Sequence record: KT454805
DNA length: 64,000 nucleotides
From: Escherichia phage phiSUSP1
Reading direction: 5' to 3' (one strand)
A program made the translations under genes and the position numbers. Below, piece after piece: positions 13,542 through 23,510 of the stretch (position 1 is its first letter; each line of letters opens with the position of its first letter). The notes beneath the pieces were generated by a model. The model was not told the DNA's origin. It worked only from the letters and a program-made list of their open reading frames with translations, and made no database searches.

Positions 13542-16697
<3,156 letters not shown>

Positions 16698-16698
<1 letters not shown>

Positions 16699-18167
16699 TG
16701 GCTGGATTAACCGCAACAGGATTACAAACACTGAGGTATCAAGAAATCTTTGATAATATCAAAGCAAGACTTTTAAGAGATATCTCCCCAAACCTTGACG
16801 TATCTGAGGACAGCCAATTAGGTCTGTTCTTAGCATCAGTAGCAAGAGCCTTGGCAGATACCCATGAAGTTCTGTCTGAAATTTATGATGGTAACACCAT
16901 TGACAAAGCTGAAGGATTCAACCTAGATGATATCACAGCCTTAAACGCAATCTACAGATATGTTGCTCAGGCTACAAGAGGACAGGCTGAATTTACTGGT
17001 ACAACTGGTGCTTCAATTCCTGCAACCACAAGACTGAGAAGTACTGCTGGTAATATTTTCTATCCAGTTTCTACGTTCACGCTAACACCATCTTATTGTG
17101 TTGAAGCGGTTCTAGAAGTTAACTCTTTACGTACTGATGCAAACTATGTTATTATTATTGATAACGTTGTTTTCTCTTATCAACCTACATCTTCAGACAC
17201 TATTACGACTCTACTAAATGAACTTGCAGATGCGATTAATGGTGGTATTGTTGCGAAAGCTGAGGTTATTAATGGTGGCTCATCTCTAAGAATCTACAAA
17301 GATGAAGGGGATATTATTGCAAGAACAAACCCTATGGTTGTTACTGCAACGACATTCTTAAGCTTTACGAAGATTACTACAATTCATGATGTAGTTGCTG
17401 AAGAGGTTGGTGCTATGCCAGCTTTGGCAGGAACTCTGATTGAGATTGAAACGACTGTAGATGGTCTTGACAGTGTATTTAACAGATACGACCTGACAAC
17501 AGGACGTGATGAAGAAAATGATACAGAACTTCGCCAGCGTTACCTAGAGTCTTTAACCGTTACTGGTGTAGGTACTTTAGATGCTATTGTTGCTGCTGTC
17601 AAGAGAGTTCAGGGTGTGTCAGACGCTTCAGGTGTAGAGAACGACACTGAGACAACAACTTCTGACGGTATTCCTCCGAAATCTTTCAAGATTGTTGTTG
17701 TAGGTGGTCAGAACGATAACGTTGCTCAAGCTATCTGGGATACTAAACCTGCTGGTATCAGGGCTTATGGTTCTATCTTCGGAACTGCATATGACCTTGG
17801 AGGATTGGCTCATAATGTTTACTTCAGCAGACCAACGCCTAAGTATGTCTTTGTGAAGGTGACTTACGAGTTGTACGATGAAGAAAGCTTGACAATCCCT
17901 GAAGAAGATATTCATGACAGCATTGTACAGGGTATTAACGATTATGGCAGAACCCTGAAAGTTGGTAATGACGTGATTCCTAACAGAATCTATGGATACA
18001 TCTATGATGTTATTCAGGGGATTGAAATCAACGAAATTAAAGTTGCCCTTTCAAATAACCAAGCAGTTCCACCAACAGATGACCAGTACACTACTTCGAG
18101 AATCACAGTTGATGGTGACCAGTATACGGTATGGGAAAGCAGCCAGTACACTATCACTAAGGAGTAA
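16698..18167 (+). CDS. baseplate J-like protein (putative)
   Basis: 489 aa; position. Confidence 0.45.
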
Positions 18168-18169
18168 CA

Positions 18170-19027
18170 ATGTTTGAAAAGATTGAAGACGTCTATTACA
18201 AAACATTGGATGAAAGAACTGTAACTCAATTCAAAGAAAAGTTTATTTACACTAGTCTATTGAAATCTATTACAGATGAGTTACAATTGTTAGAGGATAT
18301 TACTTGGCAGATGCACACAGAACGTAATATCCGTACAGCTATTGGTCAGCAATTAGATAATATTGGGGCTTTGATTAAAGTCCCTAGACCTCTTGGTGCT
18401 GATGACGACACATATCGTGCAATGCTGTATATCCAAATTTTCCTAAGACGTTCTGACACAACTCCAGCGTTTCTTCAAAATGCCGTAATGACACTTTACA
18501 ACGCTACCTTTTCACAGGTGTTTGAGCATATCACGCCTATGACGGCTGGTATTGTTATCCGTGTTAATACGAGAAATAACGTTCTAGATACAGCATACAC
18601 ACTTTCAAAGATTGCTGCAACAACAATTGGTTCAGCAGTCATCTTAAGAGATGTAACTTTGAATGGTACTGCTTGGACACCTGTAGAAGTTGCTGACTCA
18701 GCTTTAGCCATCGTTGACGACAAAGACAACTGGTTTGTAACAGATAATAACAGAGGTCTTGTAACGAATAACACAGGTGGTTCTCTTGAGGCTAACTTGT
18801 TGGGTAGTTTAGCAGATGCAGGTGTAAGAGACGGATATTTCAGAATTGATAGAACTGCTGGAAGCACTTCAAAAGATTATATGAATGTGAGCAGAACGAA
18901 TAACAGTAACGACAACTTTATTGTCGGTAAAGAAACGGTTGCAGGTGGTGAATATGGTGTAATGGCTGAAGTTGCACAAATCATCAAAGGCAGAAAAGAT
19001 AAATCTCAACAGGAAGGAAGTTCATAA
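18170..19027 (+). CDS. baseplate/tail fiber attachment protein (gpI-like, putative)
   Basis: 285 aa; position. Confidence 0.35.
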
Positions 19028-19341
19028 TGGCAGATGCAGTAAGATGGGCTACAGATGATGTAGACGCTGATGGTAACCAGTTAAAAGTGTTACCACCTCC
19101 TGAGATTCAGGCAACAGGGTTACTTCGTGGCGAACCAATGGGTCGTCAGTGGTATAACTATATTTTAAACTATTTGCTGGAAAGAGCAAATGGGACAACA
19201 GCTATTGTTGGTGAAGTCAGAAGCTTTGCTACCGAGCAACCCGATTTAGTATCGGCTGGATGGAACCTTATTAATACCGTGACAGGTACTGCTCCAACAA
19301 GCACAACTAATCAGTACACTTATGAATTTATCGGAGGCTAA
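19027..19341 (+). CDS. hypothetical tail protein (104 aa)
   Basis: ORF track; coupled to neighbours. Confidence 0.35.
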
Positions 19342-19343
19342 TA

Positions 19344-20471
19344 ATGGCAGTAGGTGAAATTCAAATTAGTGCCTTGCCTCAAGCGTCGTTACCAATTGAG
19401 TTAAGTGATATCTTCCACCTTAAACAAGGTATTGAGGATAAGAGATGTACACTTGAGCAATTACTTGACCCCCACGCATCCCTGAGAAATAACCCTCACG
19501 GTGTCACAAAGGTTCAGGTTGAATTGGGTAACGTATTAAACGCTTTACAGCTTGTCGCTGCAAATAACTTATCAGATATTGTTGACGTAGCCGAAGCAAG
19601 AGCAAACTTGCAGATTATGTCTTCTGATGAAGTTAATCAACTTATTCAGGCTCACATCAATGATAAGAACAACCCTCACAACACAACTAAATCACAAGTT
19701 GGTTTGGGTAATGTTCAGAACTGGTTAGCCTCTAACGCATATAACGAAGATGCTGATAAGTATGCTACAGCAAGAGCTGTTAATAGTCTATATCCAGTTG
19801 GTACTATCCACTTGTCTATGAATGCTGCTAACCCATCTACTTACCTGATTTGTGGAGGTACTTGGGAGCTAGTTTCAAGAGGTAGAGCACTTGTGGGTTA
19901 TGATAGTGCTTCCAGACCAGCAGGTTCGACGTTTGGTTCACAGACTGCTGCACTGACTGCTAATAACATCCCTGCTCACACTCACTCAGTGTACGTTACA
20001 GGTGGTGGTCACACTCACGGTGCAACTGTCTCTATTAATGCTTTTGACTATGGTACGAAGGGAACTACAACGTTTGACTATGGAACCAAAACAGTAAGTA
20101 CATTTAACTACGGCAACAAGACAACAAGTTCTGCTGGCTTCACACAGACCACGCTTATCAATCGTGGGTATGATAATGGTAGCTTACCGGGACTATCAGT
20201 TGTAGGTGCAGATTATGACCCAAGAGCAACACTGACAACGGCTAATAACCATACTCACTCTGTAGCAATCGGTGCGCATAACCACACAGTTGCAATTGGT
20301 GCTCACAGCCATTCTGTAGCGATTGGTTCTCACAACCACTCAGCAACAGCAACAGTAACTGGAGCAGGTGAGCACTCCCACTCTGGTACAACTGGTTCAA
20401 CTGGTTCTGGTCAAGCGTTCAATATTGAACAGCCATCATTCGTACTTTATGTATGGCAAAGAACTGCTTAA
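19344..20471 (+). CDS. tail fiber protein with C-terminal tail-collar-like domain and HxH repeats
   Basis: duplicated NNPH..TK.QV.LGNV fiber motifs; C-terminal region PVGTIHLS...GGTWELVSRG and HTHSV/HNHTV/HSHSV repeats; ends VWQRTA. Confidence 0.7.
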   Translation: MAVGEIQISALPQASLPIELSDIFHLKQGIEDKRCTLEQLLDPHASLRNNPHGVTKVQVELGNVLNALQLVAANNLSDIVDVAEARANLQIMSSDEVNQLIQAHINDKNNPHNTTKSQVGLGNVQNWLASNAYNEDADKYATARAVNSLYPVGTIHLSMNAANPSTYLICGGTWELVSRGRALVGYDSASRPAGSTFGSQTAALTANNIPAHTHSVYVTGGGHTHGATVSINAFDYGTKGTTTFDYGTKTVSTFNYGNKTTSSAGFTQTTLINRGYDNGSLPGLSVVGADYDPRATLTTANNHTHSVAIGAHNHTVAIGAHSHSVAIGSHNHSATATVTGAGEHSHSGTTGSTGSGQAFNIEQPSFVLYVWQRTA

Positions 20472-20478
20472 TTATTAC

Positions 20479-20499
20479 AGGGGCTTTTTAGCCCCTTTT
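20479..20499 (+). terminator. terminator-like hairpin between the two fiber genes
   Basis: AGGGGC-ttttta-GCCCCT followed by TTT. Confidence 0.45.
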
Positions 20500-20513
20500 A
20501 AGAGGATTGTATA

Positions 20514-22862
20514 ATGGCAGAATTTAAATTGAGTGAACTAAACTCGATTAACGAAATTCGTTCTGATGACCTATTGCATGTCAGAGTTAAGAAAAGAACT
20601 GAGATGTTAGGTGATGAAGACCGTAGAATGACTTATGCAGATTTTCTTGCATCATTTAGACTGGAAAGATTTCTGCAATTAGTTGGTGGAACCATGACAG
20701 GTAATTTAGGGATTGTGAAGCTTACCTATGGAGGAAAAGATTTACTTGACCCAACAGGTAGCTCTGAAATTGTCTTCGGTGATACTGCAAAAACTTTCAA
20801 GCTTAATGCAAATGGTCTTAAACTGACTATTGCAGATGCTTCAAGAAGTGCAACTGTTTACCACACTCTGAACAAACCATCCCCTAATGAACTTGGGATG
20901 AGAACTAATGATGAGAACGATGCAAGATTTGCTATCAAGGGAACTCAAAATACCTTCACAGCAAGTCAGATTTTCCAGACAGATAATGCTGGTTTGACTC
21001 TGAAGAACACTGCTGCGGCTGCATTGTATTATGAAGGTCGTGATACAGCAAACGTTGTAAGATTCACAATTGGTAACCTGAGTTCTGGTTCTGACGTTAC
21101 TATTGCAAACACCAGACAGAATACTAACATTGTTCTTGGCACTGGTTCTGTAGGTATTAACAAGCAGCTTCAAGTAACTGGACAGGTTGTTCCTTCAGAC
21201 TTTGCAAACTTTGATGCAAGATTCTATACTCGTGATGCAGCAGACCAAAGATTTGTTCAGTTGGCAGCAGCTAACACGATTACTGGAAACAACACCTTCA
21301 GAGGGACTACAACGTTACTTGGTGACGGTGCAAGATTAACTCTGAAGAACTTGACAAGTGGTAAAGCACTTTACATTGAAGGTCAGAACACAGATGCTTC
21401 TATGAAGTGGGCTGTAGGTAACTATGCAGATGGTAGCAACTCAGTTGTATTGACAAACATCTCAAATGATACCTATGTATTGCTTGATAACATGGTCAGA
21501 GTTAACAAGAGTCTTGCAATCACTGGACAGGTTCAACCATCAGACTGGACTAACATTGACTCCCGTTATGTTCTTATCGGTTCATACGCAAATCTTGCTA
21601 AGAAGAATGAAGCTAACACATTCACCCTACAGCAGAATATTCAGTCTGATGGTGAAGCACTTAGAGTCTATAGTAAGGCTCAGAACAATGCTTCCTACAT
21701 TGTTGGTAAGAACACTGATAACACTAATAAGTGGTATATTGGTTGTGGTACAAACGGTTCTGGTATTGCATCTTTCCATAACTACTTAACTGGTGCAAGA
21801 ATTGATTTGTCTGATGAAGTTCTTCTGTCAAAATCTTTACAGATTACTGGACAGGTAAAACCTTCTGATTGGGGTAACTTGGATGCAAGATACTTCACAC
21901 AGACAGCAGCTAACTCTAGATTTATGCTTGCTGGCTCATCAGGCAATGCCACTGAACAGAATGGTGGAGATGGCGTAGCGTGGAATGCCAAGACAGGTTT
22001 GTACAATGTTACATTTTCAACTGGTGGCTCAACACAACTGGTCTACCATATGTATCAGGGTGCATCATCAACACCGTCTGCTCAGTTGAAATTCAACTAT
22101 AAAAATGGTGGGATGTGGTACAGGTCGGCTAGGGATAGCTATGGTTTTGAAGCTGCTTGGTCTAAAGTGTATACAGAAGCACAGAAACCAACACCTTCAG
22201 AACTTGGTGCGTATACTAAAGCAGAAACTGACCAAAAAATTGCTGCTGCTGTTACATCTTCAACAGACCTTAAGAAAGTCTATCCAGTTGGGATTGTAAC
22301 ATGGTTCGCCACTAACCAAAACCCTAACACGACTCTTGCAGGTATGACTTGGACGTATCTGAATGAAGGTGTTGGAAGAACAGTTAGGATTGGTGCAGCA
22401 AACGGTTCAGATGTTAAATCAGTTGGTGGTGCGGATACTGTGACGTTATCTGTAGGGCATATCCCTTCACACACTCACAGCTTCTCAGCTACAACATCAA
22501 GCTTTGACTACGGTACTAAAACGTCTAACACAACGGGTGCTCATACTCACTCTGTGAGTGGTTCTGCTGCATCTGCTGGTAGCCATAACCATGCAATCTC
22601 GTGGATTGGTCAGAACTCTACACACTATTCTGGTGGTGGTGGTGGTAAGATTGGTACAGGGCCAGGTTATACTGATGCAGGTGGTGCTCACACCCACACA
22701 ATCTCTGGTACTGCTACCTCTGCTGGTAACCATGCCCACACAGTAGGTATCGGTGCTCACACCCACACAGTTAGTGGTAACACTGGTGGTACAGGTTCTG
22801 GTTCAGCATTCAGTGTTGTAAACCTGTTTATTAGATTGATGGCATGGGTTAGAACGGCGTAA
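20514..22862 (+). CDS. long tail fiber protein with three internal repeats and the same C-terminal collar/HxH module
   Basis: 782 aa; three copies of L(Q/A)(V/I)TGQV.PSD..N.D.R(F/Y) repeat; C-terminal HTHSF, AHTHSV, SHNHAI, AHTHTI, NHAHTV, AHTHTV; ends AWVRTA. Confidence 0.75.
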   Translation: MAEFKLSELNSINEIRSDDLLHVRVKKRTEMLGDEDRRMTYADFLASFRLERFLQLVGGTMTGNLGIVKLTYGGKDLLDPTGSSEIVFGDTAKTFKLNANGLKLTIADASRSATVYHTLNKPSPNELGMRTNDENDARFAIKGTQNTFTASQIFQTDNAGLTLKNTAAAALYYEGRDTANVVRFTIGNLSSGSDVTIANTRQNTNIVLGTGSVGINKQLQVTGQVVPSDFANFDARFYTRDAADQRFVQLAAANTITGNNTFRGTTTLLGDGARLTLKNLTSGKALYIEGQNTDASMKWAVGNYADGSNSVVLTNISNDTYVLLDNMVRVNKSLAITGQVQPSDWTNIDSRYVLIGSYANLAKKNEANTFTLQQNIQSDGEALRVYSKAQNNASYIVGKNTDNTNKWYIGCGTNGSGIASFHNYLTGARIDLSDEVLLSKSLQITGQVKPSDWGNLDARYFTQTAANSRFMLAGSSGNATEQNGGDGVAWNAKTGLYNVTFSTGGSTQLVYHMYQGASSTPSAQLKFNYKNGGMWYRSARDSYGFEAAWSKVYTEAQKPTPSELGAYTKAETDQKIAAAVTSSTDLKKVYPVGIVTWFATNQNPNTTLAGMTWTYLNEGVGRTVRIGAANGSDVKSVGGADTVTLSVGHIPSHTHSFSATTSSFDYGTKTSNTTGAHTHSVSGSAASAGSHNHAISWIGQNSTHYSGGGGGKIGTGPGYTDAGGAHTHTISGTATSAGNHAHTVGIGAHTHTVSGNTGGTGSGSAFSVVNLFIRLMAWVRTA

Positions 22863-22941: not shown

Positions 22942-23139
22942 ATGCCGACTATCCTAGCAATCCTCTTAAAAAACTTGGGTAGCTTCTTCTGGAAACTTCT
23001 ACTTTCCCTTCTGAGTGAATACATGATTGAGAAAGCCTTCTTCAGACTTGCAAGATACCTTGCGAGTAAGACAGATACGCCTATTGATGATGAATTTGTT
23101 AACAACTTGGAAAAAGCCTTTAAAGGGGAGAAAGAATGA
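22942..23139 (+). CDS. small hydrophobic protein (65 aa)
   Basis: ORF track; hydrophobic N-terminus ILAILLKNLGSFFWKLLLSLL. Confidence 0.35.
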   Translation: MPTILAILLKNLGSFFWKLLLSLLSEYMIEKAFFRLARYLASKTDTPIDDEFVNNLEKAFKGEKE

Positions 23140-23510
23140 AGTGGTTAGAGGATGCTTTCAAAAATAACATTGGTGCAATTGTTGTGGGTATCTTCAGTGT
23201 AATTGGTATGTACACTACAATGCAGGTGTCTAGTGGGAAGCAGGAAGTTTCCGTCTCAACAAAGTTACAACAGCTAGATAGTTACAACAAAAGCAACTAT
23301 TCAGCTATTCGTGATTTACAGTCTGACATGAAACTCCTGCAATTAGGCATGGAGAACCAGAAGGTTCAGCTAGAGAACGTAAAGGGTGAAAACGCCAAGT
23401 TGACAAAAACCCTTGATAAATTCTCTGACAGTGTTAATAACCTAGCACAGTCTGTATCAGCTTTGCAAGCAATCACTGAACAGAACACACAAAATGCTAA
23501 GAAGAAATAA
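23136..23510 (+). CDS. membrane-anchored coiled-coil protein (124 aa)
   Basis: N-terminal TM segment IGAIVVGIFSVIGMY then Q/L/K-rich helical region. Confidence 0.4.
   Translation: MKWLEDAFKNNIGAIVVGIFSVIGMYTTMQVSSGKQEVSVSTKLQQLDSYNKSNYSAIRDLQSDMKLLQLGMENQKVQLENVKGENAKLTKTLDKFSDSVNNLAQSVSALQAITEQNTQNAKKK

Follow-up and report, generated by a model that had tools for sequence, protein, structure and literature searches.

A pair of side fibres, one short and one long, has already been described for the phages VpaE1 (2015), Sf14 and Bas63 (2025). In VpaE1, both fibres were reported in 2015 to be homologous to the T4 adhesin, with the core of lipopolysaccharide (LPS) as the receptor. Electron cryo-microscopy (cryo-EM) of Bas63 gave fibres measuring 430 Å and 630 Å, both composed of collar, needle and head, with a chain that doubles back at the head to the collar; citing the T4 structure, the same paper has the His-x-His (HxH) motifs of the needle coordinate iron and the small head contact the receptor (PMC12609058). 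The short-fibre orthologues of Bas63 and Sf14 were both seen as a 430 Å fibre lying along the sheath (PMC12609058; PMC11821841), and AlphaFold models of orthologous trimers, fitted to cryo-EM data, are available.

Here we analyse the corresponding locus of Escherichia phage phiSUSP1 in a stretch of DNA of 64,000 nucleotides (nt) from record KT454805, the whole of which is called the window below. Two open reading frames (ORFs) on its plus strand, which an initial annotation made from the sequence alone had delimited exactly (Table 1), encode proteins of 375 amino acids (aa) and 782 aa, referred to as A and B. They very probably make up the short and long side fibres of a myophage of the Felix O1 group (Ounavirinae, genus Suspvirus), each ending in a T4 gp37-type tip with a variable head. 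The initial annotation had noticed that two tail fibres share a C-terminal module and that the longer one carries internal repeats. This was correct, and the architecture is a known one, met here in a phage that is 98% identical to SUSP2.

Relationship to described fibre pairs

The fibre region is 97.9% identical in DNA to that of Escherichia phage SUSP2 (Ounavirinae, genus Suspvirus), and over its first 25 kb the window shows 98.2% identity to SUSP2 and 96.4% to EcSzw-2. At the protein level, A is 98% identical to its SUSP2 counterpart and 66% to Sf14 gp52, while B is 99.1% identical to the SUSP2 protein; in SUSP2 these products are annotated as 'tail protein' and 'tail fiber protein'. Both match PHROG families over their full length, A the tail fiber family phrog_2097 (E 4e-117) and B phrog_4277 (1272 bits).

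Gene order, protein sizes and the motifs EDxRCT and EDxRMT are the same in the fibre pairs of SUSP2, Bas63, Sf14 and VpaE1 (gp74 and gp75), and Ounavirinae pairs have, like the window, a tip of collar, HxH needle and head on each fibre, a long-fibre shaft of repeat domains and the same C-terminal signatures. Even the number of HxH motifs in Bas63, seven in the short fibre gp26 and six in the long fibre gp27, equals that in A and B. Compared with SUSP2, the window's A lacks the heptapeptide YRAVQAS and its B carries a 553-nt tip patch that is nearer to EcSzw-2. The Salmonella and Mooglevirus members have other heads, and their short fibres count nine HxH motifs against seven in A.

Homology of the two fibre tips

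Judged by alignment, the resemblance between the C-termini of A and B is one of homology and not of composition. Residues 146–375 of A align with residues 586–782 of B at 27% identity with 18% gaps (BLASTP, composition-adjusted, E 1e-10), and the unadjusted score of 82 bits compares with 28.3 ± 4.3 bits (maximum 48.5) for 300 shuffles of the B C-terminus. When family profiles built from 11–12 relatives are compared instead (hhalign), the modules match with a probability of 99.9% and an E-value of 9e-33 over 185 columns that reach both C-termini. Because of these shuffle scores and the profile E-value, composition does not account for the similarity, and the shared C-terminal module of the initial annotation is borne out. 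The related terminal motifs read there, VWQRTA in A and AWVRTA in B, are likewise present and are conserved in all 11–12 relatives examined: short fibres end in [LV]Y[VI]W[QK]R[TV][AS] and long fibres in LMAWVRTA, which is invariant in 12 phages.

The 'tail-collar-like' domain placed before these motifs needs a change of family. Scanned alone, the collar segments of both fibres match Pfam Gp10_C (A 62 bits, B 30.5 bits; cut-off 27), but the family that bears the name, the Phage Tail Collar Domain (PF07484), found no match in them even at E ≤ 10, in a search whose HMMER filters may hide very weak matches. Residues 133–221 of A also match T4 gp10 (PDB 2fkk, E 1.6e-5). The C-terminal domain of gp10 (2FKK; PF21939) belongs to the same family as the A and B collars, although gp10 itself is a baseplate protein with neither needle nor head.

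The shared module stems from an old duplication, and the two tips are ancient paralogues. Within a genome, A and B are 25–36% identical in 10 of the 11 phages compared, the window included, which argues for an old event, and since both paralogues occur with their own C-terminal signatures in Suspvirus, Felixounavirus and Mooglevirus, the duplication predates these genera. The longest stretches of DNA that A and B share in the window measure only 46–51 nt at 78–80% identity, so that there has been no recent conversion between the two genes. Searched for elsewhere in the 64 kb, neither the tip nor the shaft repeat turned up again. Domain duplication and modular exchange, the two origins initially offered for the module, both find support, the former in a 27% identical module that is present in both paralogues across three genera and the latter in modules swapped between phages, among them a patch in the window itself (22199–22751; see below).

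Collar, needle and head

Both modules match the receptor-binding tip of T4 gp37 (2XGF), residues 629–759 of B at E 4e-17 and residues 221–344 of A at E 1e-6. This T4 structure is reportedly the work of Bartual and colleagues in 2010. We aligned residues 800–1026 of gp37 (sequence from the T4 record, its HxH positions read from the sequence) with A140–375 and B580–782, and the three are collinear from the collar (YPxG) through a first HxH, FDYGTK units, outgoing HxH, a variable middle and returning HxH to G(N/T)T..T....AF and the last residues, VRLA in T4, WQRTA in A and WVRTA in B. Like A and B, the T4 tip has a collar, FDYGTK units, HxH motifs on both strands, an internal head and an AF...VR(L/T)A end, and the terminal motif of the window's fibres belongs to this T4-type module, the C-terminus of gp37 being ...AFNYIVRLA.

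Reiterated HxH motifs had been reported at both fibre ends, and they are there far in excess of expectation: seven in A (residues 212, 223, 303, 312, 321, 330 and 344) and six in B (653, 677, 691, 726, 740 and 749), counts that were never reached in 20,000 shuffles (means 1.0 and 0.39). Among the seven HxH positions of T4, B keeps six and A five, to which A adds two of its own. Both histidines of each motif are retained in 10–11 of 11 relatives while the middle residue varies, with the exception of the two motifs beside the B head (7 of 11). Part of the returning strand of A is encoded by a 27-nt tandem array (20256–20341, 3.2 copies). By position in the alignment, the A and B motifs are homologous to the T4 gp37 sites, as the likening of these arrays to the metal-coordinating fibre tips of T4 had implied, and the shared module is a true homologue of the gp37 tip, whose HxH motifs coordinate iron.

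The setting of the tip differs from that in T4. There it sits on the 1026-aa distal half-fibre of a four-protein fibre and needs gp38, whereas A and B are fibres of one protein each that carry it directly; their heads show no sequence relation to that of T4, B has six sites and A another site pattern, and the receptor is probably LPS only. A tblastn search of the whole 64 kb found no homologue of T4 gp38 (best E 0.41), and the ORFs downstream of B belong to PHROGs of unknown function.

Where in the tip specificity resides is suggested by conservation. In alignments of short fibres (11) and of long fibres (12), drawn from three to four genera, we scored identity to the window per bin. In A, values of 0.7–0.96 at residues 1–220 fall to 0.33–0.53 at 241–300 and recover to 0.85 at the C-terminus. 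In B, residues 1–140 are conserved, the repeat shaft (141–560) is variable and 561–680 are conserved again; 681–740 form the most variable stretch of the tip (0.38–0.50, near the lowest shaft values), and 741–782 are almost invariant. The initial annotation had put receptor binding at the C-terminal end, which holds for the tip module as a whole but not for the extreme C-terminus, the most conserved part; what varies is an internal head. Homology with T4, in which the chain turns back at this point, would place the receptor-binding part at that head (A ~261–300, B ~694–724). The two heads of the window are unrelated in sequence, so that the fibres probably recognise different features of the cell surface; they have a scaffold in common, not the receptor-contacting surface.

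Shaft of the long fibre

Three internal repeats of about 110 aa had been read in the longer fibre, and their number and homology are upheld: compared in pairs, the units are 39–41% identical (BLASTP, E 3e-21 to 4e-19, or about 1e-20), and their profiles match at E 1e-35 to 1e-43 (hhalign). Their phase was not, as the motif L(Q/A)(V/I)TGQVxPSD (B residues 219, 334 and 442), taken to open each repeat, lies in the last third of each unit and closes it. In the original phase, the third 'repeat' (442–556) matches the other two over its first 42 residues only and then enters the gp37_C domain. Pfam gp37_trimer (PF20744) matches B three times, at 160–243, 274–362 and 380–472, with scores of 58.6, 63.9 and 79.9 bits (cut-off 21.7), and in DNA the repeats leave a 41-nt trace at spacings of 345 and 324 nt. 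A self-comparison of B1–480 had shown only the diagonal, as if the repeats were undetectable by BLAST; this was an artefact of the self-hit, since the separated units match.

A profile of 17 repeat copies matches residues 368–442 of T7 gp17 (E 4e-8) and the Mu fibre S (E 0.002). The T7 stretch is one that we take to fall within the pyramid domain of Garcia-Doval and van Raaij (2012). A T7 fibre protein has this domain (4A0T, 7BOZ) once, directly bearing the receptor-binding tip, whereas in B it is triplicated and forms shaft. For Sf14, too, a long fibre with a domain like the C-terminus of T7 gp17 has been reported (PMC11821841).

Beyond the repeats lies a Mu-type domain that matches Pfam gp37_C (E 3e-23, 82–88 bits, cut-off 22.5). 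Residues 474–578 of B match the Mu S/S' structure 8JU3 (E 2e-23), and tblastn matches are found in the fibres of Mu, P1 and Peduovirus (P2-type); relative to Mu gpS/S' (5YVQ, 8JU3), which is homologous to B477–584, the domain is internal in B rather than terminal. Neither this domain nor B55–145 qualifies as a degenerate copy of the repeat (hhalign probability ≤ 1%). Five beta-helix repeat domains have been reported for the long fibre of Bas63 (PMC12609058), and the three repeats of B together with its two flanking domains would add up to that number.

Proposed fibre architecture and alternative explanations

Our reading of A and B as short and long side fibres with gp37-type tips draws on the homologies, motif arrays, repeat structure, conservation pattern and recombination patch observed here. 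By analogy with the homologues, each fibre would most likely be a homotrimer with its N-terminus on the baseplate, the short fibre bound to the Baseplate_J-type wedge and the long fibre to a small platform protein (by position the 104-aa ORF), and both may be retracted along the sheath. In the tip, a collar would be followed by a long needle of six beta strands and by a small head, with the chain running out, turning at the head and coming back; as the chain turns back there, the last ~30 residues (...AF...W(Q/V)RTA) would pack back at the collar. Each HxH, contributed by three chains, would form one octahedral iron site that staples and rigidifies the needle, which predicts seven such sites in A and six in B. 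The head, hypervariable and exchangeable, would touch the receptor, most likely the LPS core, with collar and needle as its conserved scaffold. The long fibre owes its extra length to three tandem domains like the T7 gp17 pyramid and one of Mu/P1/P2 type, joined by short helix-turn connectors.

This picture has its limits. Trimer state, chain reversal and metal content, like attachment points and the LPS receptor, are carried over from homologues, the first three at 50–68% (Ounavirinae) or ~30–40% (T4) identity. A lacks two of T4's outgoing-strand HxH motifs and has extra FDYGTK-type units in their place, so that its needle does not look like a simple copy of T4's. With no gp38-like assembly factor in the window, folding must differ from T4 there; gp38 dependence is an accessory feature of T4 and not a property of the fold. 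No finding here contradicts the proposed architecture. The exchange in A of two T4-equivalent HxH motifs for FDYGTK units, with the needle retained, and the absence of the two head-proximal HxH of B from some relatives would also fit arrays that are structural beta-strand repeats without metal; we consider this unlikely, since the histidine pairs are strictly conserved around a free middle residue and stand at positions homologous to the iron-coordinating motifs of gp37.

Other explanations concern what A is and how the module came to be shared. That A is not a fibre but a T4 gp10-like baseplate wedge or tail-pin protein might be argued from its best Pfam match, Gp10_C, from its position directly after the baseplate genes and from the record of phage mistaenkt, where the orthologue is annotated as 'baseplate wedge subunit and tail pin'. 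Gp10_C spans only the collar of A, however, beyond which a complete needle, head and C-terminus of gp37 type follow; A also matches phrog_2097 'tail fiber' and has orthologues that cryo-EM reveals as a 430 Å fibre along the sheath, all of which makes a wedge protein very improbable. We give as little weight to a recent duplication of A and B, or gene conversion between them, in this genome. Such homogenisation does exist in Salmonella phage VSe102, but the window's modules have diverged to 27% protein identity and share only the short DNA stretches given above, and both paralogues carry their own C-terminal signatures in all three genera. A compositional or convergent likeness between Gly-, Ser-, Thr- and His-rich C-termini, for which the low-complexity regions, the 27% identity and the 18% gaps might speak, has practically no chance left: same-composition shuffles fall far short of the observed score, the adjusted BLASTP and the collinear profile match remain significant, and each module taken alone matches T4 gp37 and Gp10_C, in an order common to the two, which refutes it.

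Variability and exchange of tips among relatives

At least six head types occur among the 12 long fibres, and they are framed by two conserved sequences, FDYGTK..GAHTHS and GxHxHxVGIGAHxHTVSGNTGGTGSGSAF. Phages dune and Alf5, which belong to another genus, have both heads the same as the window's and were isolated on E. coli K-12, like SUSP2; dune also has repeat 3, but not repeats 1–2, in common with the window. This pattern is one of cassette mosaicism. Tips and long-fibre repeat domains are described as highly variable in the Bas63 paper as well (PMC12609058).

The tip of the window's own B is a recombination patch. Within it, 56 of 553 nt differ from SUSP2 (10.1%), against none of the 1,685 nt of gene B upstream (20514–22198), and 47 of the 59 differences in the gene leave the amino acid unchanged. 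For the patch, identity reaches 96.6% with EcSzw-2 and EcSzw_1, against 90.2% with SUSP2; being nearer to EcSzw-2 in a genome that is nearer to SUSP2, the tip module has a history of its own. A second cluster of differences from SUSP2, ~97 in 2 kb (~5%), lies over the baseplate wedge genes at 16000–18000 and is another mosaic patch near the fibre genes, while 18.5–22.2 kb are almost identical to SUSP2.

Fusions, deletions and matched heads

Relatives of the window show three kinds of event, namely heads of the two fibres kept or made alike (the VSe102 clade), A/B fusion (Meda and 35FD) and excision of a head (mistaenkt). In VSe102 (locus L006, 1284–4846), A and B agree in their needle and head cores at ~87% of 71 aa while the DNA is only 76% identical over 267 nt, and nearly the same head on both fibres of this clade is apparently kept by selection and not the product of very recent conversion. 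Salmonella phage Meda (L013, 4074–5180) has a single fibre gene of 368 aa that is A-type to residue ~315 and B-type thereafter, ends in LMAWVRTA and is accompanied by no long fibre. An independent A/B fusion is present in Salmonella phage vB_Si_35FD (L015, 2501–3703): its product has 400 aa, the crossover lies earlier and 32 aa are duplicated internally. The paper that describes this phage lists one tail protein fewer and does not remark on it. In both, the long-fibre gene of ~2.3 kb is missing; the crossovers differ.

In the Suspvirus mistaenkt (L014, 3036–5237), the long fibre lacks exactly 49 aa, comprising the head and one HxH on each side; binned identities had first suggested a swapped head, but residue-level alignment gives a clean deletion. 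The needle strands of B form a direct repeat (22536–22591 and 22683–22738) of 56 nt, 75% identical and 147 nt apart, that encodes GAHTHSVSGSAASAGSHNH and GAHTHTISGTATSAGNHAH. The loss of 49 aa equals this 147-nt spacing and lies between the repeats, as would fit excision of the head between the needle's own repeats.

It is possible, if somewhat short of an even chance, that two paralogous tips in one genome are a built-in recombination substrate that alters fibre number and specificity. The window holds such substrates, its own events being only the between-phage tip patch and a 7-aa deletion in A. The fused and headless variants (Meda, 35FD, mistaenkt) could be viable phages, those with fusions having a single fibre set, but could also have arisen in the laboratory or through errors of assembly. 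Neither the fusions nor the loss of a head nor the matched heads are mentioned in the fibre literature examined, which includes the Bas63, Sf14, VpaE1 and 35FD papers, and these comparative by-products may be the sole new material here.

Two further records depart from the usual pair. Erwinia phage Fifi318 (Kolesnikvirus; L012, 4001–9071) keeps the short fibre (357 aa, 6 HxH, ending in VYIWKRVS), and where the single long-fibre gene would be it has a different set of three or more fibre genes, among them one annotated as 'proximal tail fiber subunit' and two as 'tail fiber protein'. In CHB7 (L003, 1147–2458), the short fibre is annotated as two overlapping ORFs (1147–1866 and 1850–2458), which suggests a frameshift or a sequencing error in the record.

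N-termini, neighbouring genes and feature coordinates

The N-terminal parts of the two fibres had been said to differ, and overall they do, but a short attachment motif is common to both: ...DIFHL...EDKRCT..QLL in A and ...DLLHV...EDRRMT..DFL in B. The match is weak (hhalign P 0.002, 14 columns, probability 13%), and we count it as a short motif, not as domain homology. Sf14 gp52 and gp53 have the same motif pair, EDRKCT and EDRKMT (PMC11821841), and in Bas63 the two fibres retain a common structure in their baseplate-binding N-terminal domains, although the sequences have little in common (PMC12609058). Residues 1–47 of A have a mean identity to the window of 0.83–0.96 per 20-aa bin in 10 relatives, and residues ~95–130 are matched by many PHROG tail-fibre families. 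Residues 1–145 of B, with EDRRMT at 35–40, are conserved at 0.78–0.90 across relatives; this region has no Pfam match and is unrelated to the repeat unit by hhalign.

At residue 150 (19788–19789), A lacks seven residues, YRAVQAS (21 nt), that are kept in all 11 other short fibres examined, even in SUSP2 and in the distant short fibre of the Erwinia Kolesnikvirus. What is lost is one of two heptads (RAVNSLY / RAVQASY), the second, where the shaft meets the collar, and ...CTATA / ...TCATA microhomology flanks the deletion.

The genes run from a Baseplate_J wedge (489 aa) through a second wedge (285 aa), a 104-aa ORF, A, B and a 65-aa ORF to a putative holin, beyond which thymidylate synthase and dihydrofolate reductase lie on the opposite strand. 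From wedge to holin, this order is the same in all Suspvirus, Felixounavirus and Mooglevirus loci compared. The wedge proteins match Pfam Baseplate_J and DUF2612 as well as PHROG baseplate families, and gp23, gp24 and gp25 of Bas63 have the same gene order, with equal sizes of 489 and 285 aa. From this agreement in order and size we infer that the 489-aa, 285-aa and 104-aa proteins are candidate attachment partners of the fibres, the 104-aa ORF (19027–19341) corresponding by position to the long-fibre platform of Bas63. Downstream of B, the 65-aa ORF (22942–23139) has a hydrophobic N-terminus and belongs to phrog_402 (unknown function), and the next, of 124 aa (23136–23510), called 'putative holin' in relatives, belongs to a PHROG of unknown function and has a weak Rz-like spanin match. 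In T4 the order is gp37, gp38, holin t; neither small ORF resembles gp38.

Between A and B the RNA can form a hairpin with a GC-rich stem of 7 bp (dG −12.9 kcal/mol, fold z-score −1.6). In 11 phages of three genera the stem is kept and the loop is variable; the T-run is lost in Moogleviruses. A terminator scan did not call it, and with a z-score of only −1.6 and a T-run that is not conserved, a plain terminator is improbable; the hairpin may instead govern how much short fibre is expressed relative to long fibre, or stabilise the mRNA. Long-fibre occupancy is incomplete in Bas63 (PMC12609058).

Table 1. Features of the fibre locus in the window (positions in nt of the window, residues of the protein named).
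Feature	Position	Strand	Residues	Evidence and remarks
Putative attachment partners upstream of A	16698–19341	+		489-aa Baseplate_J wedge, 285-aa wedge, 104-aa protein
Gene A, short tail fibre	19344–20471	+	375 aa	Orthologue of SUSP2 gp025, Sf14 gp52, Bas63 gp26
A putative N-terminal baseplate-binding region	19344–19484	+	1–47	EDKRCT motif (31–36); role suggested by Sf14 and Bas63
A shaft	19485–19721	+	48–126	Two NNPHxxTKxQVxLGNV helix-turn motifs (48–66, 107–126), read from sequence
A collar (T4 gp10/gp37-type)	19779–19976	+	146–211	Gp10_C 62 bits; 2fkk E 1.6e-5; T4 alignment
A outgoing needle strand	19977–20123	+	212–260	HxH 212, 223, then three 10-aa FDYGTK-type units
A head, hairpin turn, putative receptor-binding	20124–20243	+	261–300	Conservation 0.33–0.46, lowest in protein; aligns with T4 gp37 head
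A returning needle strand	20244–20384	+	301–347	HxH 303, 312, 321, 330, 344
A C-terminal segment	20385–20468	+	348–375	GTTGSTGSGQAF...VWQRTA; collinear with T4 gp37 C-terminus; conservation 0.73–0.85
RNA hairpin between A and B	20479–20496	+		AGGGGCU-UUUU-AGCCCCU, just 5' of B ribosome-binding site AAGAGGA
Gene B, long tail fibre	20514–22862	+	782 aa	Orthologue of SUSP2 gp026, Sf14 gp53, Bas63 gp27
B putative N-terminal baseplate-binding region and first shaft domain	20514–20948	+	1–145	EDRRMT; helix-turn KPSPNELGMRT (121–131)
B shaft repeat 1	20949–21278	+	146–255	Pfam E 6e-16; 41% / 39% identical to repeats 2 / 3
B shaft repeat 2	21279–21608	+	256–365	Pfam E 1.5e-17; hhalign E 1e-35 to 1e-40
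B shaft repeat 3	21609–21938	+	366–475	Pfam E 1.5e-22; PDB 4a0t/4a0u (T7 gp17) E 7e-5, single sequence
B Mu/P1/P2-type fibre domain and helix-turn motif	21942–22265	+	477–584	Pfam gp37_C (PF12604); KPTPSELGAYT
Recombination patch vs SUSP2	22199–22751	+	562–746 of B	Collar, needle, head
B collar	22269–22469	+	586–652	Gp10_C 30.5 bits; aligns with A and T4 gp37 collars
B outgoing needle strand	22470–22592	+	653–693	HxH 653, 677, 691, one FDYGTK unit; 2xgf alignment
B head, hairpin turn, hypervariable	22593–22685	+	694–724	Conservation 0.38–0.43; aligns with T4 gp37 head
B returning needle strand and C-terminal segment	22686–22859	+	725–782	HxH 726, 740, 749; ...GSGSAF...LMAWVRTA; conservation 0.82–1.0

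Implications for the Felix O1 group

For this window there is no new biology beyond the Bas63, Sf14 and VpaE1 publications. Phages of the Felix O1 group serve in Salmonella typing and biocontrol and are candidates for therapy, and it is these two fibres that determine which hosts they infect. The bearing on host range that was ascribed to the shared tip is sustained, in that homology with T4 would place specificity in the hypervariable internal head, ~30–40 aa flanked by conserved coding repeats, with collar, HxH needle and C-terminus as scaffold; the division between scaffold and head indicates where heads might be grafted for host-range engineering and which residues should be spared. If the idea of paralogous tips as a recombination substrate is true, the genomes are correct and the variants are viable, the fused, headless and matched fibres of the relatives would represent an undescribed route by which phages of this group switch host range and fibre set.

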